From positions 8,987,728 to 9,051,727 of the forward strand of contig NC_057754.1 in NCBI RefSeq assembly GCF_004010195.1: DNA of 64,000 nucleotides, read 5' to 3'. The notes under the pieces are model-generated. The model was not told the DNA's origin and did not search any database. It worked only from the letters and a program-made list of their open reading frames with translations. Shown here piece after piece: positions 4,056 to 64,000 of this stretch; position 1 is the first letter of the stretch, and each line of letters opens with the position of its first letter. The DNA is from Chiloscyllium plagiosum (Eukaryota). The translations under genes and the position numbers were made by a program.

Positions 4056-4924
4056 TTTTAATTTTGTTTCTTTACCCAGAGGAATCTGGAACTCTCTACC
4101 TATAAAGGCAGAAGAAGCAGAAACCCTCATAACATTTAAGACGTATTTAAGATGTCAAGGCTGTGGGCCAAGTGCTGGGAAATGGGATTAGAATAGTTCG
4201 GTGGATGTTTTCGATGTGATGGGTCAAAGGACCCTTTTTTTCTGGGCTGTAGATCTCTGATCCTAAGCTGGATTTCTCTCTGTAATCTGACTTGCCCAGT
4301 AATAACATCAGTTGGGATCATAACAATGAATGTTTCAGTTTAACCATTACAGTCAAATATTTGAGAAAATTAACCCTTGTCATTCAGTTCATTTCACTGG
4401 GGTTAATGTAAATTTGTTATTTTTGAGATTATCATTCTGCACAGGGAGCATAACAACATAGGTATTTCTGGTGTTGCCAGATGATTTATTGTCCTGCCTG
4501 GTAACTGTGGGGGGAATGAGTTTCAGTTCGTGGCATAGTGCCACCAGTATTAGGGTAGAGGGGGAGTTTCGGTATTTCACTTCTACCATGCTTGGATTAT
4601 AGTATTGGATAATTGAATAACTAGGATGGAGTGGGCTTTAACTAACTGGGTGGTGGGTATTGAGGGGGGTGGATGTTGTGAATAGTTGGAAGAGGCTTAC
4701 AGGGTGGGAGGATACAGCAGTATTACAGGGAATCTATTGGATTATACCCAGAATGGGACAGAAAAGCATGGAGGTTACAAGTAGAAATATAGCAGGAAAT
4801 TGGGTTAAAGGTGGAAAAATGTTGAAAAGACAAATTTAGAGTTGAATATCCTTTATGTGAATGCATGTATTATTTGGAATGAAATGGATAAACTAATAGG
4901 ACAACAATAGACATGGTTACAAAG

Positions 4925-5228
4925 GGTTGGCATGGTGATTCAGTGCTTAGCACTGCTGCCTCACAGCACCAGGGACCTGGGTTTGATTCCAGCCAGAGGC
5001 AACCATGTGTGGAGTTTGCACATTCTCCCTGTATCTGTGTGGCTCCCCTCCAGGTGCTCTGGTTTCCTCCCATAGTCCAAAGATGTGCATTCTAAGTGGA
5101 TTAGCCATGGGGGGTGCAGGATTACAGGAAAGGGGATCTGGTCTAGTTGGGATGCTCCCCGGAAAGTTGGTGTGGAGTCGATGGGCCGAATGGCTTGTAT
5201 CCACACTGCAGGGATTCTATGATTCTAA
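4925..5228 (+). mobile_element. HE1-type SINE
   Basis: Similar to 90-423. Confidence 0.85.
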
Positions 5229-11619: not shown

Positions 11620-12546
11620 TCATTCGTGAACTCGCTGGTGTCTCAGCAGGCTAGATAAATGAGAGAATCCGTTCCCACACTCAGAGCAGGTAAACAGTTT
11701 CTCCCTGGTGTGAACTCGCCAGTGTCTCTGCAGACTGGTTGATTGACTGAATCCCTTCCCACAAACAGAGCAGATGAATGGCCTCTCCCCAGTGTGAATT
11801 CGCTGATGAGTCAGCAGAGTGGATGAATCTCTGAATGCCTTCCCACACTCAGAGCAGATAGATGGCCTCTCCCCAGTGTGAACTCGCTGGTGCATCACCA
11901 AGTTGCAGGACTGAATGAACCCCTTTCCACACACTGGGCAGGTGAATGGCCTCTTCCCACTGTGCACAAGCTGGTGTGTCAGCAGGTGAGCCAACTGAGT
12001 GAATCCCTTCCCACATTCAGAACATGTGAACGGTCTCTCCCCAGTGTGAACCCGCTGGTGTGTCAGCAGATTGGATGACTGAGTAAATCCCTTCCCACAC
12101 TCAGAGCATATGAATGGCCTCTCTCCAGTGTGAATATGCTGGTGAGTCAGCAGGGCAGATGAGTCACTGAATCCCTTCCCACACTCACAGCAAGTGAATG
12201 GTCTCTCCCCAGTGTGAATCCGCTGATGCATCAGCAAGTTGGATGACTGAGTGAATGCCTTCCCACACTCAGAGCAGATGAATGGCCTTTCTCCAGTGTG
12301 AACCCTCTGGTGTGTCAGCAGGTGAGATGAATTACTAAATCTCTTCCCACACTCAGAACATGTGAATGGTCTCTCCCCAGTGTGAACTTGCCTGTGTTTC
12401 AGAAGGGAAGATGACTGAGTGAATGCTTTTCCACACTCAGAGCAGGTGAATGGCCTTTCCCCAGTGTGACTGCGTTGATGAGTTTCCAGTGCAGATGGTG
12501 TAGAAAATCCCTTCCCACAGACTCTACATTTCCATGGTTTCTCCAT
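11620..12546 (-). CDS. C2H2 zinc-finger protein, 11 tandem fingers (ZNF-A)
   Basis: Uninterrupted ORF MEKPWKC... with 11 CxxC-x12-HxxxH fingers and TGERPF linkers; ATG at 12546 in ACTATGG context; upstream acceptor CTTTCACAG at 12931. Confidence 0.92.
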
Positions 12547-12930
12547 AGTGTGGATGTCCTTAAGTCTTTGAATCTCTCTGGCTTGGACAGAAGCCAATTA
12601 AAGCCTTGTTCACACAGAACACTTGTTCAGTCAATTATGTGAATAGTACAATGTTTTCTCCAAGATGCGTAATTGGTTAAAGCTTTTCCCACAATTAGTT
12701 CATTGGAACACTCTCAATCATGCTGTGTAACTGGTTAAAGCAGTGCACTGGAATACTTTAACTCAGGTGTCGTGCTGTCCCAGTCCTGCTGATGTTTAAT
12801 CAGACAAAACAGATTCAATAATTGTTTTTCAAATTACAGGCTTGATTATATTCAGATCCTGATGAATTCTGTCAGTCCTCATGATGTTTGGTTTGAGTTT
12901 CCTGTCTGAAAACTGTTCCCTTCTGATGAC
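12547..12930 (-). other. 5' part of ZNF-A exon: decayed zinc-finger relic, probably 5' UTR
   Basis: Reads RVFQ*TNCGKSFNQL... with stops and frameshifts; homologous to 27748-28097 and 37739-38094. Confidence 0.65.
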
Positions 12931-26904: not shown

Positions 26905-27747
26905 TCACTCGTGAATTCGCTGGTGCTGTAGCAGGTTGGAAAACTGAGTGAATCCCATCCCACACATAGAGCAGGTGAATGGCCTGTCCGCTGTGTGGAC
27001 ACGCTGGTGTTTCAGCAGGTTGCAAAACTGGGTGAATCTCTTCCCACACGTACAGCAGGTAAATGGCCGCTCTCCAGTGTGAACTCGCTTGTGTCTCATA
27101 AGAACATTGCTGCTTTTAAACGTCTCCTCACAGTCAGAACATTTAAAAGGTTTTACATCAGAGTGAATACGCTGATGTTTCAGTAGGTTGTATGACTGAG
27201 CAAATCCCTTTCCACACTTGGGACATGTAAACGGTCTCTCTCCAGTGTGAGTTCGCTGGTGAACAGTGAGTTCAGATGATCTCCTGAATCCAGTTCCACA
27301 GTGAGAGCACCTGAATGGTCTCTCGTCAGTGTGAACACGTTGATGGCATGTCACTTCCCCAGAACTTTTAAAGCATTTCCCACAGTCTGGGCATTTAAAA
27401 GGTCTCACATCAGTGTGAACTCGTTGGTGTTTCTGTAGGTTTGAAGAGGCAGTGAATCTCTTCCCACACACAGAGCAGCTGAAAGGCTTCTCCCCACTGT
27501 GAATGAGTTGGTGTCTCAGTAGATACTTCTTGCTTTTAAATTTCTTCTCACAATGAGAACATTTAAAAGGTCGTTGCTCAGTGTGAACATACTGGTGTGT
27601 CAGCAGACTGGATGACTGAGTGAATCCCTTCCCACAAGTAGAGCAGGTGAATGGTCTCTCCCCAGTGTGACTGCGTCGATGAATTTCAAGCTCAGATGGA
27701 TAACTGAATCCCTTTCCACAGTCTACACATTTCCATGGTTTGTCAAT
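26905..27747 (-). CDS. C2H2 zinc-finger protein, 10 tandem fingers (ZNF-B); start codon uncertain
   Basis: Open frame 26905-27840 with 10 intact fingers; the family start ATG GAG AAA is ATT GAC AAA at 27747; acceptor TTTCCTAG at 28098. Confidence 0.85.
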
Positions 27748-28274
27748 GCCATGGGTATCCTTGGGTCTCTCCAGGTTGGACAAATTGTTTGGAGCCTTGT
27801 CTACATACACTACACTGCACTGTGAAAGGTGCAATGTTGTTCAGGCTGTTCAACTGTTGGAAGCTATTTCTACAATCAGTTAACTGGAACACCCACAATT
27901 CAGCGTGTGTATCTTGGTGCTTTTCCAATCACATTGATGTTTGAAATCTTTTTGACAAACAGAACAGACAAACATTTCTCCTTCCACATTCAAAGGATGA
28001 TGATATTCATGTCCTGATAAATAAAGAGATTCTATCAAATCTTGACGTGATTTTTTGATGTGAGTTGTTCATCTGATAATCGTCCAATTATAGAGTCCTA
28101 GGAAAGGAGTTCAGAAAGCCCAATGACTGAAGTTGAAGACAGAAATATAGAAAAGAAGATTTTGGTTTCTATGGAGCACTTTCTTCTAAAGTAGTAAATA
28201 TTTGTCTCTCTCTCAAGCTTTCCACGCTGGAATTCAATCCTGAGTGTCATCTCTATTATTTTGCTTGGACTTCA

Positions 28275-32832: not shown

Positions 32833-34615
32833 ATAGTCATAGTCATAGATTCATAGAGATGTACAACATGAAACAGACCCTTCGGTCCAATGCCGACCAG
32901 ATATACCAGTCTAATCTAGTCCCACTTGCCAGCACCTGGCCCATATTCCTCCAAACCCCTCCTATTCATATACCCATTGAGATGCCTTTTAAATGCTGCA
33001 ATTATACCAGCCTCCATCACCTCCTCTGGCAGCTCATTCCATACACGCACCAGTCTCTGTGTGAAAAAGTTGCCCCTTAGGTCTCTTTTATATCTTTCCC
33101 CTCTCACCCTAAACCTATACTCTCTAGATCTGGACTCGCCCACTCCAGGGAAAAGACTTCTCCTATCCATGCCCCACATGATTTTATAAACCTCTATAAG
33201 GTCACCCCTCAGCCTCCAATGCTCCAGGGACAACAGCCCTAGCCTGTTCAACCTCTCTCTATAGCTCAAATCCTCCAACCCAGGCAACATCCTTGTAAAT
33301 CTTTTCTGAATCCTTTCAAGTTTCACAACATCCTTCCGATAGGAAGGAGACCAGAATTGCATGCAATATTCCAAAAGTGGCCTAACCGACGTCCTGTACA
33401 GCTGCAACATGACCTCCCAACTCCTGTACTCAATACTCTTGACCAATAAAGGAAAACATACCAAACACTTTCTCCACTATCTTATGTCCTTGCGACTCTA
33501 CTTTCAAGAATCTATGAACTTGCACTCCAAGGTCTCTTTGTTCAGCAAACTCCCTAGGACCTTACCATTAAGTGTATAAGTCCTGCTAAGATTTGCTTTC
33601 CCACAATTTAACACCTTGCATTTATCTAAACTAAACTCTATCTGCCATTCCTCAGTCCATTGGCCCATCTGATCAAGATTCCATTGTAACCTGAGGTAAC
33701 CCTCTTCGCTGTCCACTACACCTCCAATTTTGGTGTCACCTGCAAACTTACTAACTATACCTCATGTGTTCACATAAATGACATATTTACATAAATGACA
33801 AAATGTAGTGGACCCAGCACCAATCCTTGTGGCACTCCACTGGTCACAAGCCTTCAATCTGAAAAACAACCCTCCGCCACCACCCTCTGTCTTCTACCTT
33901 TGAGCCAGTTCTGTATCCAAATGGCTAGTTCTTCCTGTATTCCATGAGATCTAACCTTACTAACCAGTCTCCCATGGGGAACCTTGTCGAATGCCTTAGA
34001 GAAGTCCATATAGATCACATCTACCACTCTGCCCTCATCAATCCTTTTTGTTACTTCTTCAAAAAACTCAATCAAGTTCGTGATTTCCCACGCACAAAAC
34101 CATGTTGACGATCCTTAATCAGTCCTTGCGCATTCAAATACATGTAAATCCTGTCCCTCAGGATTCCCTCCAACAACTTGCCCACCACTGAGGACAGGCT
34201 CACCGGTCTATAATTCCCTTACCGGAGAGAGTGAGGACTGCAGAGGCTGGAGATCAGAGCTGAAAATGTGTTGCTGGAAAAGCGCAGCAGGTCAGGCAGC
34301 ATCCAGGGAACAGGAGAATCGACGTTTCGGGTATAAGCCCTTCTTCAGGAAGAAGGGCTTATGCCTGAAACGTCGATTCTCCTGTTCCCTGGATGCTGCC
34401 TGACCTGCTGTGCTTTTCCAGCAACACATTTTCAGCTATAATTCCCTTACCACCTTTTTAAAATACCGGTACCACATTAGCCAACCTCCAGTCTCCCAGC
34501 ACCTCACCTGTGACTATCGATGACACAAATATCTCAGCAAGAGGCCTAGCAAGCGCTTCCCACAGAGTTCTGGGGTGCACCTGGTCAGGTCCTGCGGATC
34601 TATCCACCTTTACGC
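32833..34615 (-). mobile_element. CR1 LINE ORF2 3' half and tail
   Basis: ORFs 33854-34075 (YMDFSKAFDKVPHGRL) and 32916-33464; tail repeats. Confidence 0.93.
34224..34435. mobile_element. Penelope-derived hairpin element (inverted pLTR), family A
   Basis: 89-bp arms 34258-34346 and 34349-34437 with 3 mismatches and a 2-nt loop; 16-bp TSD CTATAATTCCCTTACC (34208-34223, 34436-34451). Confidence 0.9.
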
Positions 34616-38094: not shown

Positions 38095-38688
38095 ATGGAG
38101 AAACCGTGGAAATGTGAAGATTGTGGGAAAGGATTTAATTACTCATCCCGGCTGGAAATCCATCGACGCACTCACACTGGGGAGAGGCCATTCATCTGCA
38201 CTGAGTGCGGGAAGGGATTTGCTCGGTCATCCAACCTTAGTTCACACCAGCGAGTTCACACTGAGGAGAAGCCATTCAGCTGCACAACGTGTGGACAGAG
38301 CTTCAGGTCTGCAGACATGCTCACTGAACACGAGCTGTTTCACATTGGAGGGCAGAAACCATTCAGTTGCTTCGTGTGTGGGACAAGATTCTCTCAGTTA
38401 CTCGCCGTCCAGTCACACCACCATTTTCACACAAAGGAGAATCCATTCCGCTGCACTTCCTGTGGAAAGACGTTCAAGCATTCGATTGACCTCAAAGAAC
38501 ACCAGCACACCCACACTGGACAGAAACCATTCACCTGCTCCGTGTGTGGGAAGCAATTCCCTTGGTCATCCCAACTGCTGACACATCAGCAAGTTCACAC
38601 TGTGGAGAGGCTGTTCACCTGCTCTGTGTGTGGGATGGAATTCACTCAGTCATCCCATCTGCAGAGACACCAACGAATCCATAAGTGA
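38095..38688 (+). CDS. C2H2 zinc-finger protein, 7 tandem fingers (ZNF-C)
   Basis: CACCATGG Kozak start, MEKPWKC..., 7 fingers; acceptor CCTTTTACAG at 37738; AATAAA near 39085. Confidence 0.92.
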   Translation: MEKPWKCEDCGKGFNYSSRLEIHRRTHTGERPFICTECGKGFARSSNLSSHQRVHTEEKPFSCTTCGQSFRSADMLTEHELFHIGGQKPFSCFVCGTRFSQLLAVQSHHHFHTKENPFRCTSCGKTFKHSIDLKEHQHTHTGQKPFTCSVCGKQFPWSSQLLTHQQVHTVERLFTCSVCGMEFTQSSHLQRHQRIHK

Positions 38689-39109
38689 CTACTTGATTCT
38701 GCTGTTGTTAATGATGTTCATGATTGAGAATCTCATAATATTTGGTTTATTTCTGATATTAACAACCCCTAGAACTGTGGCTGGTATTTTAATTTGATTT
38801 TTTCAGGGCTGCACTGTTTCTTTTCAAACGTACCACCTGTGATCTTTCCCTTTGAACTGGGAACTCAGTAACAATACAATAATGAACTTTTACTTCAATC
38901 CTAAATTGAATTTTCAATACGAAATCTGCAGTCCAGAATCTGGAAGATTAATATGTCCAAGTGGGAAAATCTCTTAATCCTTGCTGACAATTTTGACTGC
39001 ACATTTTTCACATTGATACCTGAGCTATGGCATTAAATGAAGCCAAGAGTCATGAATAATAATGAAATATTTTACAGATAAATCAATAAAACTTTCATCA
39101 ATCAACATC

Positions 39110-60658: not shown

Positions 60659-62268
60659 GAGAAAGTGAGGTCTGAAGATGCTGGAGATCAGAGCTGAAAA
60701 TGTGTTGCTGGAAAAGCGCAGCAGGTCAGGCAGCATCCAGGGAACAGGAGAATCGACGTTTCGGGCATAAGCCCTTCTTCAGGAATGAGGAAAGTTGGTC
60801 CAGCAGGCTAAGATAAAAGGTAGGGAGGAGGGACTTGGGGGAGGGGCGTCGTAAATGTGATAGGTGGAAAGAGGTCAAGGTGAGGGTGATAGGTCAGACT
60901 GGGGTGGGGGCGGAGAGGTCGGGAAGAAGATTGCAGGTTAGGAAGGCGGTGCTGAATTTGATGGATTTGACTGAGACAGGCTGGGGGGAGGGGAAATGAG
61001 GAAACTGGTGAAACCCGAGTTCATCCCTTGTGGTTGGAGGATTCCTAGCCGGAAGATGAGGCGTTCCACCTCCAACCGTCATTTCGCTGTGGTCTGACGA
61101 TGGAGGAATCCAAAGACCTGCATATCCTTGGTGGAGGGGGAGGGGGAATTGAAATGTTGAGCTACAGGGTGGTTGGGCTGGTTGGTCCGGGTGTCCCAGA
61201 GGTGTTCTCTGAAACGCTCCGCAAGTAGCCGGCCTGCCTCCCCAATATAGAGGAGGCCACATCGGGTGCAAAGGATATCCTCTTCGTAGGATATGTGGAA
61301 CAATCCATCTTCCGCAACTACACTGGCCCCACCCCCCACCTTTTCCTCCGCTACATCGATGACTGTATCGGCNNNNNNNNNNNNNNNNNNNNNNNNNNNN
61401 NNNNNNNNNNNNNNNNNNNNNNNNNNNNNNNNNNNNNNNNNNNNNNNNNNNNNNNNNNNNNNNNNNNNNNNNNNNNNNNNNNNNNNNNNNNNNNNNNNNN
61501 NNNNNNNNNNNNNNNNNNNNNNNNNNNNNNNNNNNNNNNNNNNNNNNNNNNNNNNNNNNNNNNNNNNNNNNNNNNNNNNNNNNNNNNNNNNNNNNNNNNN
61601 NNNNNNNNNNNNNNNNNNNNNNNNNNNNNNNNNNNNNNNNNNNNNNNNNNNNNNNNNNNNNNNNNNNNNNNNNNNNNNNNNNNNNNNNNNNNNNNNNNNN
61701 NNNNNNNNNNNNNNNNNNNNNNNNNNNNNNNNNNNNNNNNNNNNNNNNNNNNNNNNNNNNNNNNNNNNNNNNNNNNNNNNNNNNNNNNNNNNNNNNNNNN
61801 NNNNNNNNNNNNNNNNNNNNNNNNNNNNNNNNNNNNNNNNNNNNNNNNNNNNNNNNNNNNNNNNNNNNNNNNNNNNNNNNNNNNNNNNNNNNNNNNNNNN
61901 NNNNNNNNNNNNNNNNNNNNNNNNNNNNNNNNNNNNNNNNNNNNNNNNNNNNNNNNNNNNNNNNNNNNNNNNNNNNNNNNNNNNNNNNNNNNNNNNNNNN
62001 NNNNNNNNNNNCGGGAAGTGGAAGAGATGCGGTGGAGGGCATCGTCGACCACGTCGGGGGGGAAATTGCGGTCCTTGAAGAAGGAAGTGGAGGGCTTTGA
62101 GTCCTTCGTGATGGGGGATGGAGGTGTACAGGGACTGGATGTCCATGGTGAAAATAAGGCGTTGGGGACCGGGGAAGCGAAAATCATGGAGCAGGTGGAG
62201 GGCATGGGTGGTGTCCCGAACGTAGGTGGGGAGTTCTTGGACTAAGGGGGACAGGACGGTGTCAAGGT
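60659..62268 (-). mobile_element. Young Penelope-like element (RT and GIY-YIG), rearranged, contains a gap
   Basis: CTRCGLLYIGEAGR...FREH (GIY-YIG), FTMDIQSLYTSIPH (RT motif A); plus-strand piece FLRYIDD at 61278-61372. Confidence 0.9.
60755..60782 (-). ncRNA. Minimal type-I hammerhead ribozyme core
   Basis: CUGAAGA-A-GGGC-UUAU-GCCC-GAAAC-GUC; palindromic ACGU helix III; helix I weak. Confidence 0.65.
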
Positions 62269-62724
62269 GACAGTGTGCTGTATAACTGTATGGCAGCAGC
62301 TTCAGGAGAGAACATTACTCGTAATGAATGTAGCACTGGACCAGTCAGTCAGGTAAAACTGGTAATTTCAGGTCATTGGTACTAGGTCAAGTGAAAAGCT
62401 GATCGATTCTCAGAAAAAAAATCCTATACTCAAAAGATGGATAGACTGAAGCACAACTCTTTTTGAGGTGTAAGAGATGACAGGGGGCAGAGGAAAGGTC
62501 AGTAGCAAGGGGCTGACATTGCAATGCGAAAGGCAAGAGAGTTGGAGAGGATTTGAGACAGTGTTTTTATCACTCAGACAAGCCAAGAAAACAAGACGTC
62601 CTTATGTGTCGTGGATTAATATGTTCTTGTTTCCCCAGCCAGGGAGTAAGCTATCCATTTTCTTCTGGATGTTAGTGCCTCTCCCTTTCTCAGTACCTGT
62701 CCTCCACCCTGTCCTCCTGCAGTC

Positions 62725-63118
62725 TGAGGCATGGAGTTGTGCAGCGCAGAGGCAGACCCTTCGGCTCAGCTTGTCTATGCCGACCAGGTTTCCCGGGCTG
62801 GACTTGACCCATTTGTCTGCATTTGGCCCTGTCTCTCTGGGCCTTTCCTGTTCATGTGCCTGTCTGGATGTCTAACCTGTCTGGATGTCTAATTATAGGT
62901 GTGCCTTCATCCACCACTTCCTCTTGCGGTTCATTCTGCAGGCTACCCTCTGTGTGGAGAGGTTGCCCCTTTGGTCACTATTGAATCTTTCCCCTCTTGC
63001 CTTGAATCTGTGCCCTCTGGTTTTTGGACTCCCCTATGCTTGAGGAGGATCCTTGGTTATTCGCCCTATCCCTTCCCCACGTGATTTTATGGATCTCTGT
63101 AGGGTCACATCTCGGCCT
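62725..63118 (-). mobile_element. CR1 3' tail with plus-strand A-to-G hypermutation
   Basis: Colinear with CR1 tails at 32850-33215, 51775-52110 and 55890-56130, but with many A replaced by G. Confidence 0.85.
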
Positions 63119-63982
63119 TGTTATGAAGTTGAAGGTGTGTACTGTACCTTTAGGAGAGAGTGAAAGCTGTCATGTGACAGAGTGTGTTGGAAATTTTAAA
63201 AATCTAACATTTAGCTATGAAACAAATAGCTGAGTTCACATGCTATGTTTTCACAACAATTTGAATTCAACCAATCAATTTAAATTATGCCCCAAGACAC
63301 TAAAACCCAATTGAATTTGAATGTTACTGTTTTGACAACATCGAGCCAATGAAACGATCTGATATTTTGAGGTATAAAAAGCAAGCATTTTGGACAGTTA
63401 GCCAAAGAGACAATGAACCCCTACTGCTATACAGACCGCCAGCAACCCTTCTCTCTGAAAGGTACCTTTTCATGTGAAACAGCTTTGCAGCAGAAGACTG
63501 AAGACAACCCAGGGAAATCTACAGAGGAGAATTGACACAGCTGGCTGGTTTTGAAAACTGACTTGCTGTAAATTTAGTTGGGGCTTTATTGGATCAGTAT
63601 ATTGTTGTGGAGCGGGAGGTAGACAACAAATTTAAGAGAAAGGAGGCTTACAATTGTAAATAGTTGTTGTTTAATGTTCTGTTTTGGAGTTAAAGATTAA
63701 CATTGTTATTCTTTCTTTAAATAGTGGGAGTTCTCACACTTTAGTAGATTATGAGGCAAGGTGAGCTTTTCTGTGTGGAGAAAGTGAGGACTACAGATGC
63801 TGGAGATCAGAGTCGAGGGTGTGGTGCTGGAAAAGCTTCATCGTGATGAAGGGCTTTTGCCCAAAACATCGATTCTCCTGCTCCTCGGATGCTGCCCGAC
63901 CTGCTGTGCTTTTCCAGCACCGCAGTCTTGACTCTGAACTTTTCTGTGTGTTTGGTTTAAGGATTTACCCTATGTCGTAACA
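63119..63982 (+). mobile_element. 5' LTR of an LTR retroelement
   Basis: Termini TGTTATGA...TCGTAACA (inverted), TATAAAA near 63373, followed by a PBS. Confidence 0.8.
63778..63938. mobile_element. Penelope-derived hairpin element inside the LTR
   Basis: 12-bp TSD CTTTTCTGTGTG (63766-63777, 63939-63950); left arm partly deleted; centre CTTCATC-GT-GATGAAG. Confidence 0.82.
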
Positions 63983-63985
63983 GTT

Positions 63986-64000
63986 TGGGGGCTCGGGTCC
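63986..64000 (+). other. tRNA-Pro primer binding site
   Basis: TGGGGGCTCG(GG)TCC versus the canonical TGGGGGCTCGTCCGGGAT, 3 nt after the LTR end. Confidence 0.7.

Follow-up and report, generated by a model that had tools for sequence, protein, structure and literature searches.

RNA editing is generally regarded as non-heritable. Retroprocessing in plant organelles and kinetoplastids returns edited RNA to DNA through reverse transcription, usually as a replacement in place. LINE-mediated retrocopies and 5′ transductions are inserted at new sites, with one end at the LINE 3′ tail and a truncated 5′ end. Hajjar and Linial (1995), Kim et al. (1996) and Felder et al. (1994) are said to have described A-to-G hypermutated retroviral proviruses in cultured cells, with the edits in an inverted repeat, and Carmi et al. 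(2011) reportedly described APOBEC DNA editing of endogenous retroelements.

RNA hyper-editing, as presented in the available text of two papers, produces dense one-strand clusters of A-to-G changes in repeats, depends on an inverted partner and carries upstream-G depletion as a known ADAR mark (PMC4365171, PMC5625713); for elephant shark brain RNA, 200,171 hyper-edited sites are given (Table 1 of PMC5625713). APOBEC DNA editing is described, again in the available text, as sense-strand G-to-A change in LTR elements that is made on the cDNA (PMC4866542, PMC2873906). The first of these papers is a vertebrate-wide screen of LTR elements whose filter is G-to-A, not A-to-G, and its main text never mentions 'ADAR'; the second, in the part available, takes A-to-G clusters as an RNA signal. 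One mouse provirus with an A>G excess, without ADAR context, appears in the available part of PMC12548423, and ADAR1 left ectopic L1 RNA unedited according to that of PMC5224506. We looked for a passage on re-integration of edited RNA in the available part of PMC5974252 and found none, and the literature searched, mostly openly accessible papers, yielded no description of such germline fossils of ADAR activity among non-LTR retrocopies.

The window is a stretch of 64,000 nucleotides (G000:C45:8987728-9051727) of a 3.56-Gb assembly; positions above 64000 are C45 positions minus 8,987,727. Its repeat content seems to resemble that of a shark. Its features, together with those of related loci elsewhere in the genome, are collected in the table below. 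The LINE family concerned is presumably CR1, a name taken from the earlier note and from two features, the short-repeat tail and the lack of a target duplication; a young CR1-like copy gives a profile match to the reverse transcriptase PF00078 (E 4.5e-17). The window sits in a zinc-finger gene cluster. Three 84-bp arrays at 11626-12567, 26911-27768 and 38119-38692 resemble C2H2 zinc-finger exons, and ∼1 kb past the inverted pair of CR1 copies discussed below lies a stretch that is rich in CpG, looks like a promoter and contains a tandem repeat of ∼46 bp (L065:9230-9760); it is followed by a C2H2 zinc-finger frame of 359 aa on the + strand (L066:6071-7150).

Features of the window locus and of related edited loci.
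Feature	Position	Strand	Remarks
Left flank	62270..62724		low-copy, with remnants of old repeats; no hyper-mutation; also in organisms B and C
Hyper-mutated tract, part 1	62725..63118	+	3′ tail and 3′ end of antisense CR1-like LINE; + strand A-to-G
Short-repeat 3′ tail of the LINE copy	62725..62745	-	left edge of tract; from alignment to sisters; G at 62733 and 62741
17-bp tandem duplication	62859..62892	+	edited bases in both units
CA-to-TG doublets	62865-66, 62937-38, 62998-99	+	CpG made by editing, then decayed
Left target-site duplication of LTR element	63115..63118	+	GCCT; right copy GACT behind 3′ LTR, outside window
6.4-kb LTR retroelement, 5′ LTR and start	63119..64000	+	ends at G000:C45:9057259 (about 69532); A-runs intact
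Hyper-mutated tract, part 2	G000:C45:9057260-9057404		outside window, behind LTR element; edited to about 9057365
C28 block, 6.3 kb	G000:C28:32,356,081-32,362,421 (L133, L134)	+ (A-to-G)	antisense and sense CR1 pieces
C4 edited retrocopy	G000:C4:41,693,252-41,695,604 (L145)		unedited source on contig G000:C82582 (L170)

We compared the tract with the majority sequence of the 29 best non-self genomic CR1-like copies aligned to it, over columns 62725-63118 without the duplicated stretch 62876-62897. On the + strand, 38 of 78 A positions read G, whereas T>C is found at only 1 of 101; the sisters pooled show 128/2325 and 167/2934, respectively. The A>G excess over the sisters is significant (binomial p 4e-27), as is the difference between A>G and T>C (Fisher p 7e-16), and a second reference gives 40/77 versus 2/89. 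C>T (14/119) and G>A (3/47) both lie within the range of the sisters, and the APOBEC-type change, sense-strand G-to-A or C-to-T in this orientation, is not a feature of the window copy. Since the CR1 copy is antisense in the window, the altered strand is the antisense strand of the LINE; its short-repeat tail is changed in the same way. The A content is 12.6% in the tract (62761-63118) and 24.4% at 32881-33240. The A-to-G hypermutation that the earlier note had proposed, from about 35 positions counted by eye, A contents of about 13% and 24% and the absence of a T-to-C excess, is thus confirmed.

That note had also asked whether the bias continues beyond the LTR element. It resumes there, with A>G at 11/31 versus T>C at 1/26, and the edits extend for ∼105 nt past the 3′ LTR (G000:C45:9057260-9057365), ending ∼40 nt short of the 5′ end of the CR1 copy at about 69677. 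A shared CR1 5′ end near position 470 was considered as the reason why the edits stop and was rejected, as no peak is seen there among 140 copies. An edited A-run at 69549-69570 (L065:6876-6897) is now a run of ∼17 G, and comparable G-runs occur in the C28 block; editing may thus seed G-rich motifs.

The tract is found, whole or in part, in 20 of 24 listed sequencing runs from eight studies, one sample of which may be the source of the assembly. Run X3, from a different study of the same species, yields a contig with 0 differences over 62736-63147. In organism B, a single contig of 1084 nt spans 62265-63147 with 27 other letters; 21 of the 27 can be placed, and A is restored at a single one, the CpG at 63081, so that the two organisms have no fewer than 33 of the 40 edited sites in common. 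A contig of organism C crosses 62671-63010 with 19 other letters. The identity in X3 and the edited form in organisms B and C show that the tract is no assembly or base-calling artefact. An artefactual or ordinary origin, be it a mistake in assembly or base calling, the use of RNA reads in polishing, GC-biased gene conversion or membership in a G-rich subfamily, might be suspected from an N gap 700 nt upstream of the tract (61373-62011, inside a repeat) and from a nearby 363-bp tandem duplication (69654-70378, L065:6981-7705; 98.9% identical), which is either recent or an assembly error. Yet the independent DNA runs carry G at the edited sites, gene conversion predicts symmetric change where the single T>C leaves the pattern one-stranded, and against a subfamily trait the sisters carry A where the tract has G and the edited copies have no diagnostic changes in common. 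We give such origins practically no credence.

Several later events date the edits. The LTR element split the tract after editing, and its insertion junction is also present in the contig of organism B. Between its two LTRs, 99 of 659 columns are different, which marks a minimum age, compared with a divergence of ∼3% between organism A (this species) and B and of 5-6% between A and C; the edits therefore predate all three species. The intact A-runs of the element and the old appearance of the changes, both pointed out earlier, hold up, and so does the expected GCCT in front of the element, although the copy behind it has one mismatch. A short palindromic repeat, which we take to be Penelope-like, is inserted in the 5′ LTR only (63777-63940). 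The 17-bp duplication does carry the changed bases in both units, as had been noted, but neither organism B nor organism C has it in its contig, where 11 letters are left out at 62879-62891, so the duplication is specific to this species and younger than the edits. Of the edited CA sites in the tract, five read CG and seven TG (7/12); in pooled edited pieces, TG stands at 71/140 edited CA sites, and TA at 57/386 unedited ones. That edited CA so often reads TG indicates CpG decay since the change and is a further sign of age. The window copy thus demonstrates a one-strand A-to-G tract that was fixed in the germline and is old.

We scanned the genome for similar copies, as had been proposed. The scan used two degenerate motifs, built on a stretch conserved in CR1, that require G at seven A sites on either the antisense or the sense strand. 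There were eight antisense-motif and 12 sense-motif matches; reversed control patterns gave 0. When strand asymmetry was scored with the motif left out (threshold p<0.0025), 13 of the 20 matches (12 loci; five antisense, eight sense) showed strand-asymmetric A-to-G change, compared with 0 of 100 unselected copies. The seven that failed are L114, L115, L120, L123, L125, L131 and L132; L114 and L132 were flagged as edited under tighter bounds, and the alignment of L120 missed the motif. In an unselected set of 255 pieces three were flagged, two of them the window locus refetched and one a divergent subfamily, and L084 and L020, taken at first as unselected edited copies, proved on inspection to be a divergent subfamily and a misaligned end. 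With a simulated motif sensitivity of 4-24% and a copy density taken from non-random regions (37 copies over 142 kb), we roughly estimate ∼100-300 edited copies among ∼0.9 million, or 1 to 3 in 10,000 CR1 copies. Edited copies have more edited sites in common than independence predicts. Pairs of them share 0-6 non-editing changes, of which 0-2 are transversions, and this near absence indicates that they arose separately.

The edited loci vary in structure. At C27 (L149:2554-2764, 4688-5176), minus-strand A-to-G change affects both a short palindromic repeat and a CR1 copy at a distance of 2 kb from it; the repeat lies beyond the CR1 tail and reflects either a longer captured RNA or rewriting in place. 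Edited antisense fragments are joined directly to a short sense tail at L140:4897-5185, joined to a SINE inside an older CR1 at L139:4841-5700, and stand without a visible priming handle at L135:4914-5188.

In the window copy, the fraction edited by 5′ base is 16/22 for T, 19/34 for A, 4/9 for G and 12/32 for C, and the differences are not significant (G versus non-G p 0.73; four bases p 0.08). The avoidance of a 5′ G that had been claimed for the tract is therefore not established in this copy, and the statement that many surviving As follow a G is not supported, since G precedes only six of the 36 and C precedes 15. The avoidance is, however, evident in the pooled class. Across 23 edited of 223 annotated pieces, with motif columns excluded, the rates by 5′ neighbor are 225/437 (0.51) for U, 277/602 (0.46) for A, 151/560 (0.27) for C and 116/585 (0.20) for G (chi-square p 3e-34), whereas they are flat in 51 control pieces (0.03-0.05). 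By 3′ neighbor they are 0.40 (A), 0.39 (G), 0.30 (C) and 0.29 (U). By 5′ base, the pooled class thus ranks U>A>C>G, in agreement with ADAR. Copying errors, made by an error-prone DNA polymerase or by a reverse transcriptase that pairs G with U when the nucleotide pool is skewed, would also yield antisense-strand A-to-G change along a single inserted copy, and the preference for W before A suits polymerase eta as well. But the full pooled order suits ADAR, and such errors cannot yield sense-strand copies, both orientations altered on one strand or edits that end with a hairpin. As a general cause they are largely refuted, and we regard them as very improbable.

Elsewhere in the genome, at loci known from the assembly sequence alone (C28, C4 and C82582), we find edits limited to hairpin arms, capture of one arm, insertion at a new site and an unedited source. 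The C28 block shows editing better than the copy in the window. Its antisense copy is changed from A to G at 73/114 and 37/82 (mirror change 4/116 and 8/86), and on the same strand two sense copies are changed at 74/184 and 73/166 (mirror change 6/189 and 4/164). A young SINE and a LINE inserted between the CR1 pieces are unchanged, and the long sense copy is edited only up to the reach of the antisense arm and nearly clean past it. A CR1 tail forms the end of the block, which interrupts an older repeat whose halves lie 9 nt apart in one other copy (67-71% identity, single subject sequence).

The C4 retrocopy and its source on C82582 are ∼95% alike in the spacer. Relative to the source, the copy shows A>G at 78/192 in the duplex arms (mirror change 4/162) versus 15/417 elsewhere; within the arms, the CR1 part with an inverted partner in the source contributes 30/75, and an inverted SINE pair 30/71 and 18/46. 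The source RNA is predicted to fold into a hairpin of ∼290 bp (z -31.7); an Rfam search with three loci gave no match. The copy extends no further than the CR1 tail, which in the source is part of the hairpin loop; it lacks the partner arm, and its flanks differ from those of the source. This is the pattern predicted for an ADAR-edited host transcript and LINE-primed reverse transcription, and a capture that stops at the loop and leaves the partner arm behind would explain why most fossils stand partnerless. C28, C4 and L139 all lie inside older repeats, as insertions do.

The earlier note had called for an unedited parent of 62270-63118, and none was found through the left flank, the neighboring sense CR1 copy, the spacer or a spacer motif. 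All four left-flank candidates were scored, the best non-self match being 79% over 135 nt without an A>G excess; compared with three distant relatives, the flank has no A-to-G bias, and we read it as target-site DNA. For the neighboring sense copy, the best non-self match is 77-78% among the best 40 of 25,606 candidates; the best 40 of 2,983 spacer candidates contain no source, and none of 16 non-self matches to the spacer motif has matching flanks. At a divergence of at least 15%, a repeat-only source is indistinguishable from the sisters. A source was found at one in five loci tried, and searches with the C28 spacer, L135 and the L139 junction gave none. No split older element is seen at the ends of the window copy. 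In 41 intact copies of the family, flush matches are no commoner than in shuffles, so the family offers no usable target-duplication mark; a 4-letter match around the whole inverted block was rejected as a target duplication because the family shows no such excess.

A sense CR1 copy in inverted orientation, which begins ∼140 nt past the tract (69813-71040; PF00078 E 2.4e-4, below the cut-off), could pair with the whole tract and reaches beyond the edited part. It is unedited (A>G 8/203; 3/96 over the pairing part), a fact that the ADAR reading in the earlier note had not foreseen; one patch of 4/18 outside the pairable part is attributed to chance. L136 and L137 are one-armed in the same manner, with an unedited inverted partner alongside. 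Such loci might have been rewritten in place, a + strand transcript of the locus being edited by ADAR while its antisense arm was paired with the adjoining sense copy, and a partial cDNA then replacing one arm. The proximity of a partner that covers the tract, with the LTR element discounted, would suit this explanation, as would the lack of a source copy elsewhere and the one-armed state of L136 and L137. However, 7 of 70 unedited CR1 pieces have a head-to-head inverted neighbor within 300 nt, so the arrangement is not rare; five edited loci (L135, L140, L147, L150 and L152) have no inverted CR1 partner within 10 kb, and the placement of C28, C4 and L139 is insertion-like. We consider replacement by cDNA unlikely.

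Alternatively, ADAR might have deaminated DNA directly, with the antisense strand held in an RNA:DNA hybrid, either as first-strand cDNA or in an R-loop with sense CR1 RNA. The tract spans the tail to near the 5′ end on the cDNA strand of target-primed reverse transcription, the antisense-type L138 is alike (A>G 92/236), and an unedited partner would be accounted for. ADARs act on hybrid DNA in vitro in the same context, according to the available text of PMC5389660, and a mutator role in myeloma has been proposed in that of 10.1101/2020.02.11.943845. Against this, eight of the 13 clear matches are edited on the sense strand, both orientations are edited on one strand at C28, RNA hairpins alone account for the C4 source-copy pair, and most antisense-type edited pieces lack a LINE tail. 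It also seems unlikely that ∼50% of paired dA would be deaminated yet left unrepaired, and we judge this explanation quite improbable. That the window locus and others with an unedited adjoining partner were rewritten on the chromosome with nothing inserted, by either cDNA conversion or ADAR on hybrid DNA in the germline, is a minority possibility that deserves some weight; if true, ADAR would mutate its own targets in a locus-directed way, and the changes would be inherited.

Reverse transcription of an ADAR-hyperedited RNA and its insertion at a new germline site is the probable origin of the window copy. This reading, put forward in the earlier note, withstood three attempts at refutation; it is supported for the class and likely for the window copy, where the ADAR origin follows from likeness to the other loci, its own 5′-neighbor signal being weak and an unedited parent lacking. 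A + strand RNA with the antisense CR1 piece would have paired in a long duplex with a sense CR1 copy, and ADAR would have deaminated about half of the adenosines of this RNA to inosine. A LINE reverse transcriptase would have copied the edited RNA, reading inosine as G, and the edited copy would have been inserted at a new place in the germline genome and then fixed. The LTR element, CpG decay, expansion of the G-run and the 17-bp duplication would have followed. Enzyme, partner strand and priming site are putative for this copy: the partner may have lain upstream in the source RNA and been lost as copying halted at the hairpin loop, and the unedited sense CR1 behind the tract may have served as the priming handle.

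The loci described here show that hyper-edited RNA has repeatedly entered the germline genome of a vertebrate. The fossils keep the site choice of ADAR as it was before the divergence of three related species, which makes its past specificity readable, and with the C82582/C4 source-copy pair each site of an ancient editing event can be set against editing today. The fossils further indicate that LINEs can use inosine-rich nuclear RNA as a template, that capture of half a hairpin is possible and that G-runs and CpGs arise from editing. Since earlier deaminase-fossil screens sought G-to-A in LTR elements, as the available text of PMC4866542 describes, an ADAR class may have been filtered out. 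The question of feedback from editing to DNA is now computationally testable in any repeat-rich genome.

The fossils resemble RNA hyper-editing of inverted repeats in their one-strand A-to-G change, upstream-G depletion and inverted partners; unlike that process, which is seen as RNA-versus-DNA mismatches, they are germline DNA, common to several species and CpG-decayed. With APOBEC-edited retroelements they have in common that they are genomic deaminase fossils found by comparing a copy with its source or consensus, but the change is A-to-G, without an excess of C>T or G>A. As in the A-to-G proviruses, hyper-edited RNA was reverse-transcribed to DNA; here, however, the templates are non-LTR elements and host RNA, and the products are fixed in the germline at many loci. 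Whereas organellar retroprocessing concerns C-to-U change or U insertion in organellar genes, the editing here is of the ADAR type and affects nuclear repeats. Finally, C4 and C28 end at a LINE 3′ tail and have a truncated 5′ end like LINE retrocopies, but they differ from ordinary ones in their hyper-edited template and in that priming may take place in the hairpin loop, so that one arm is copied.
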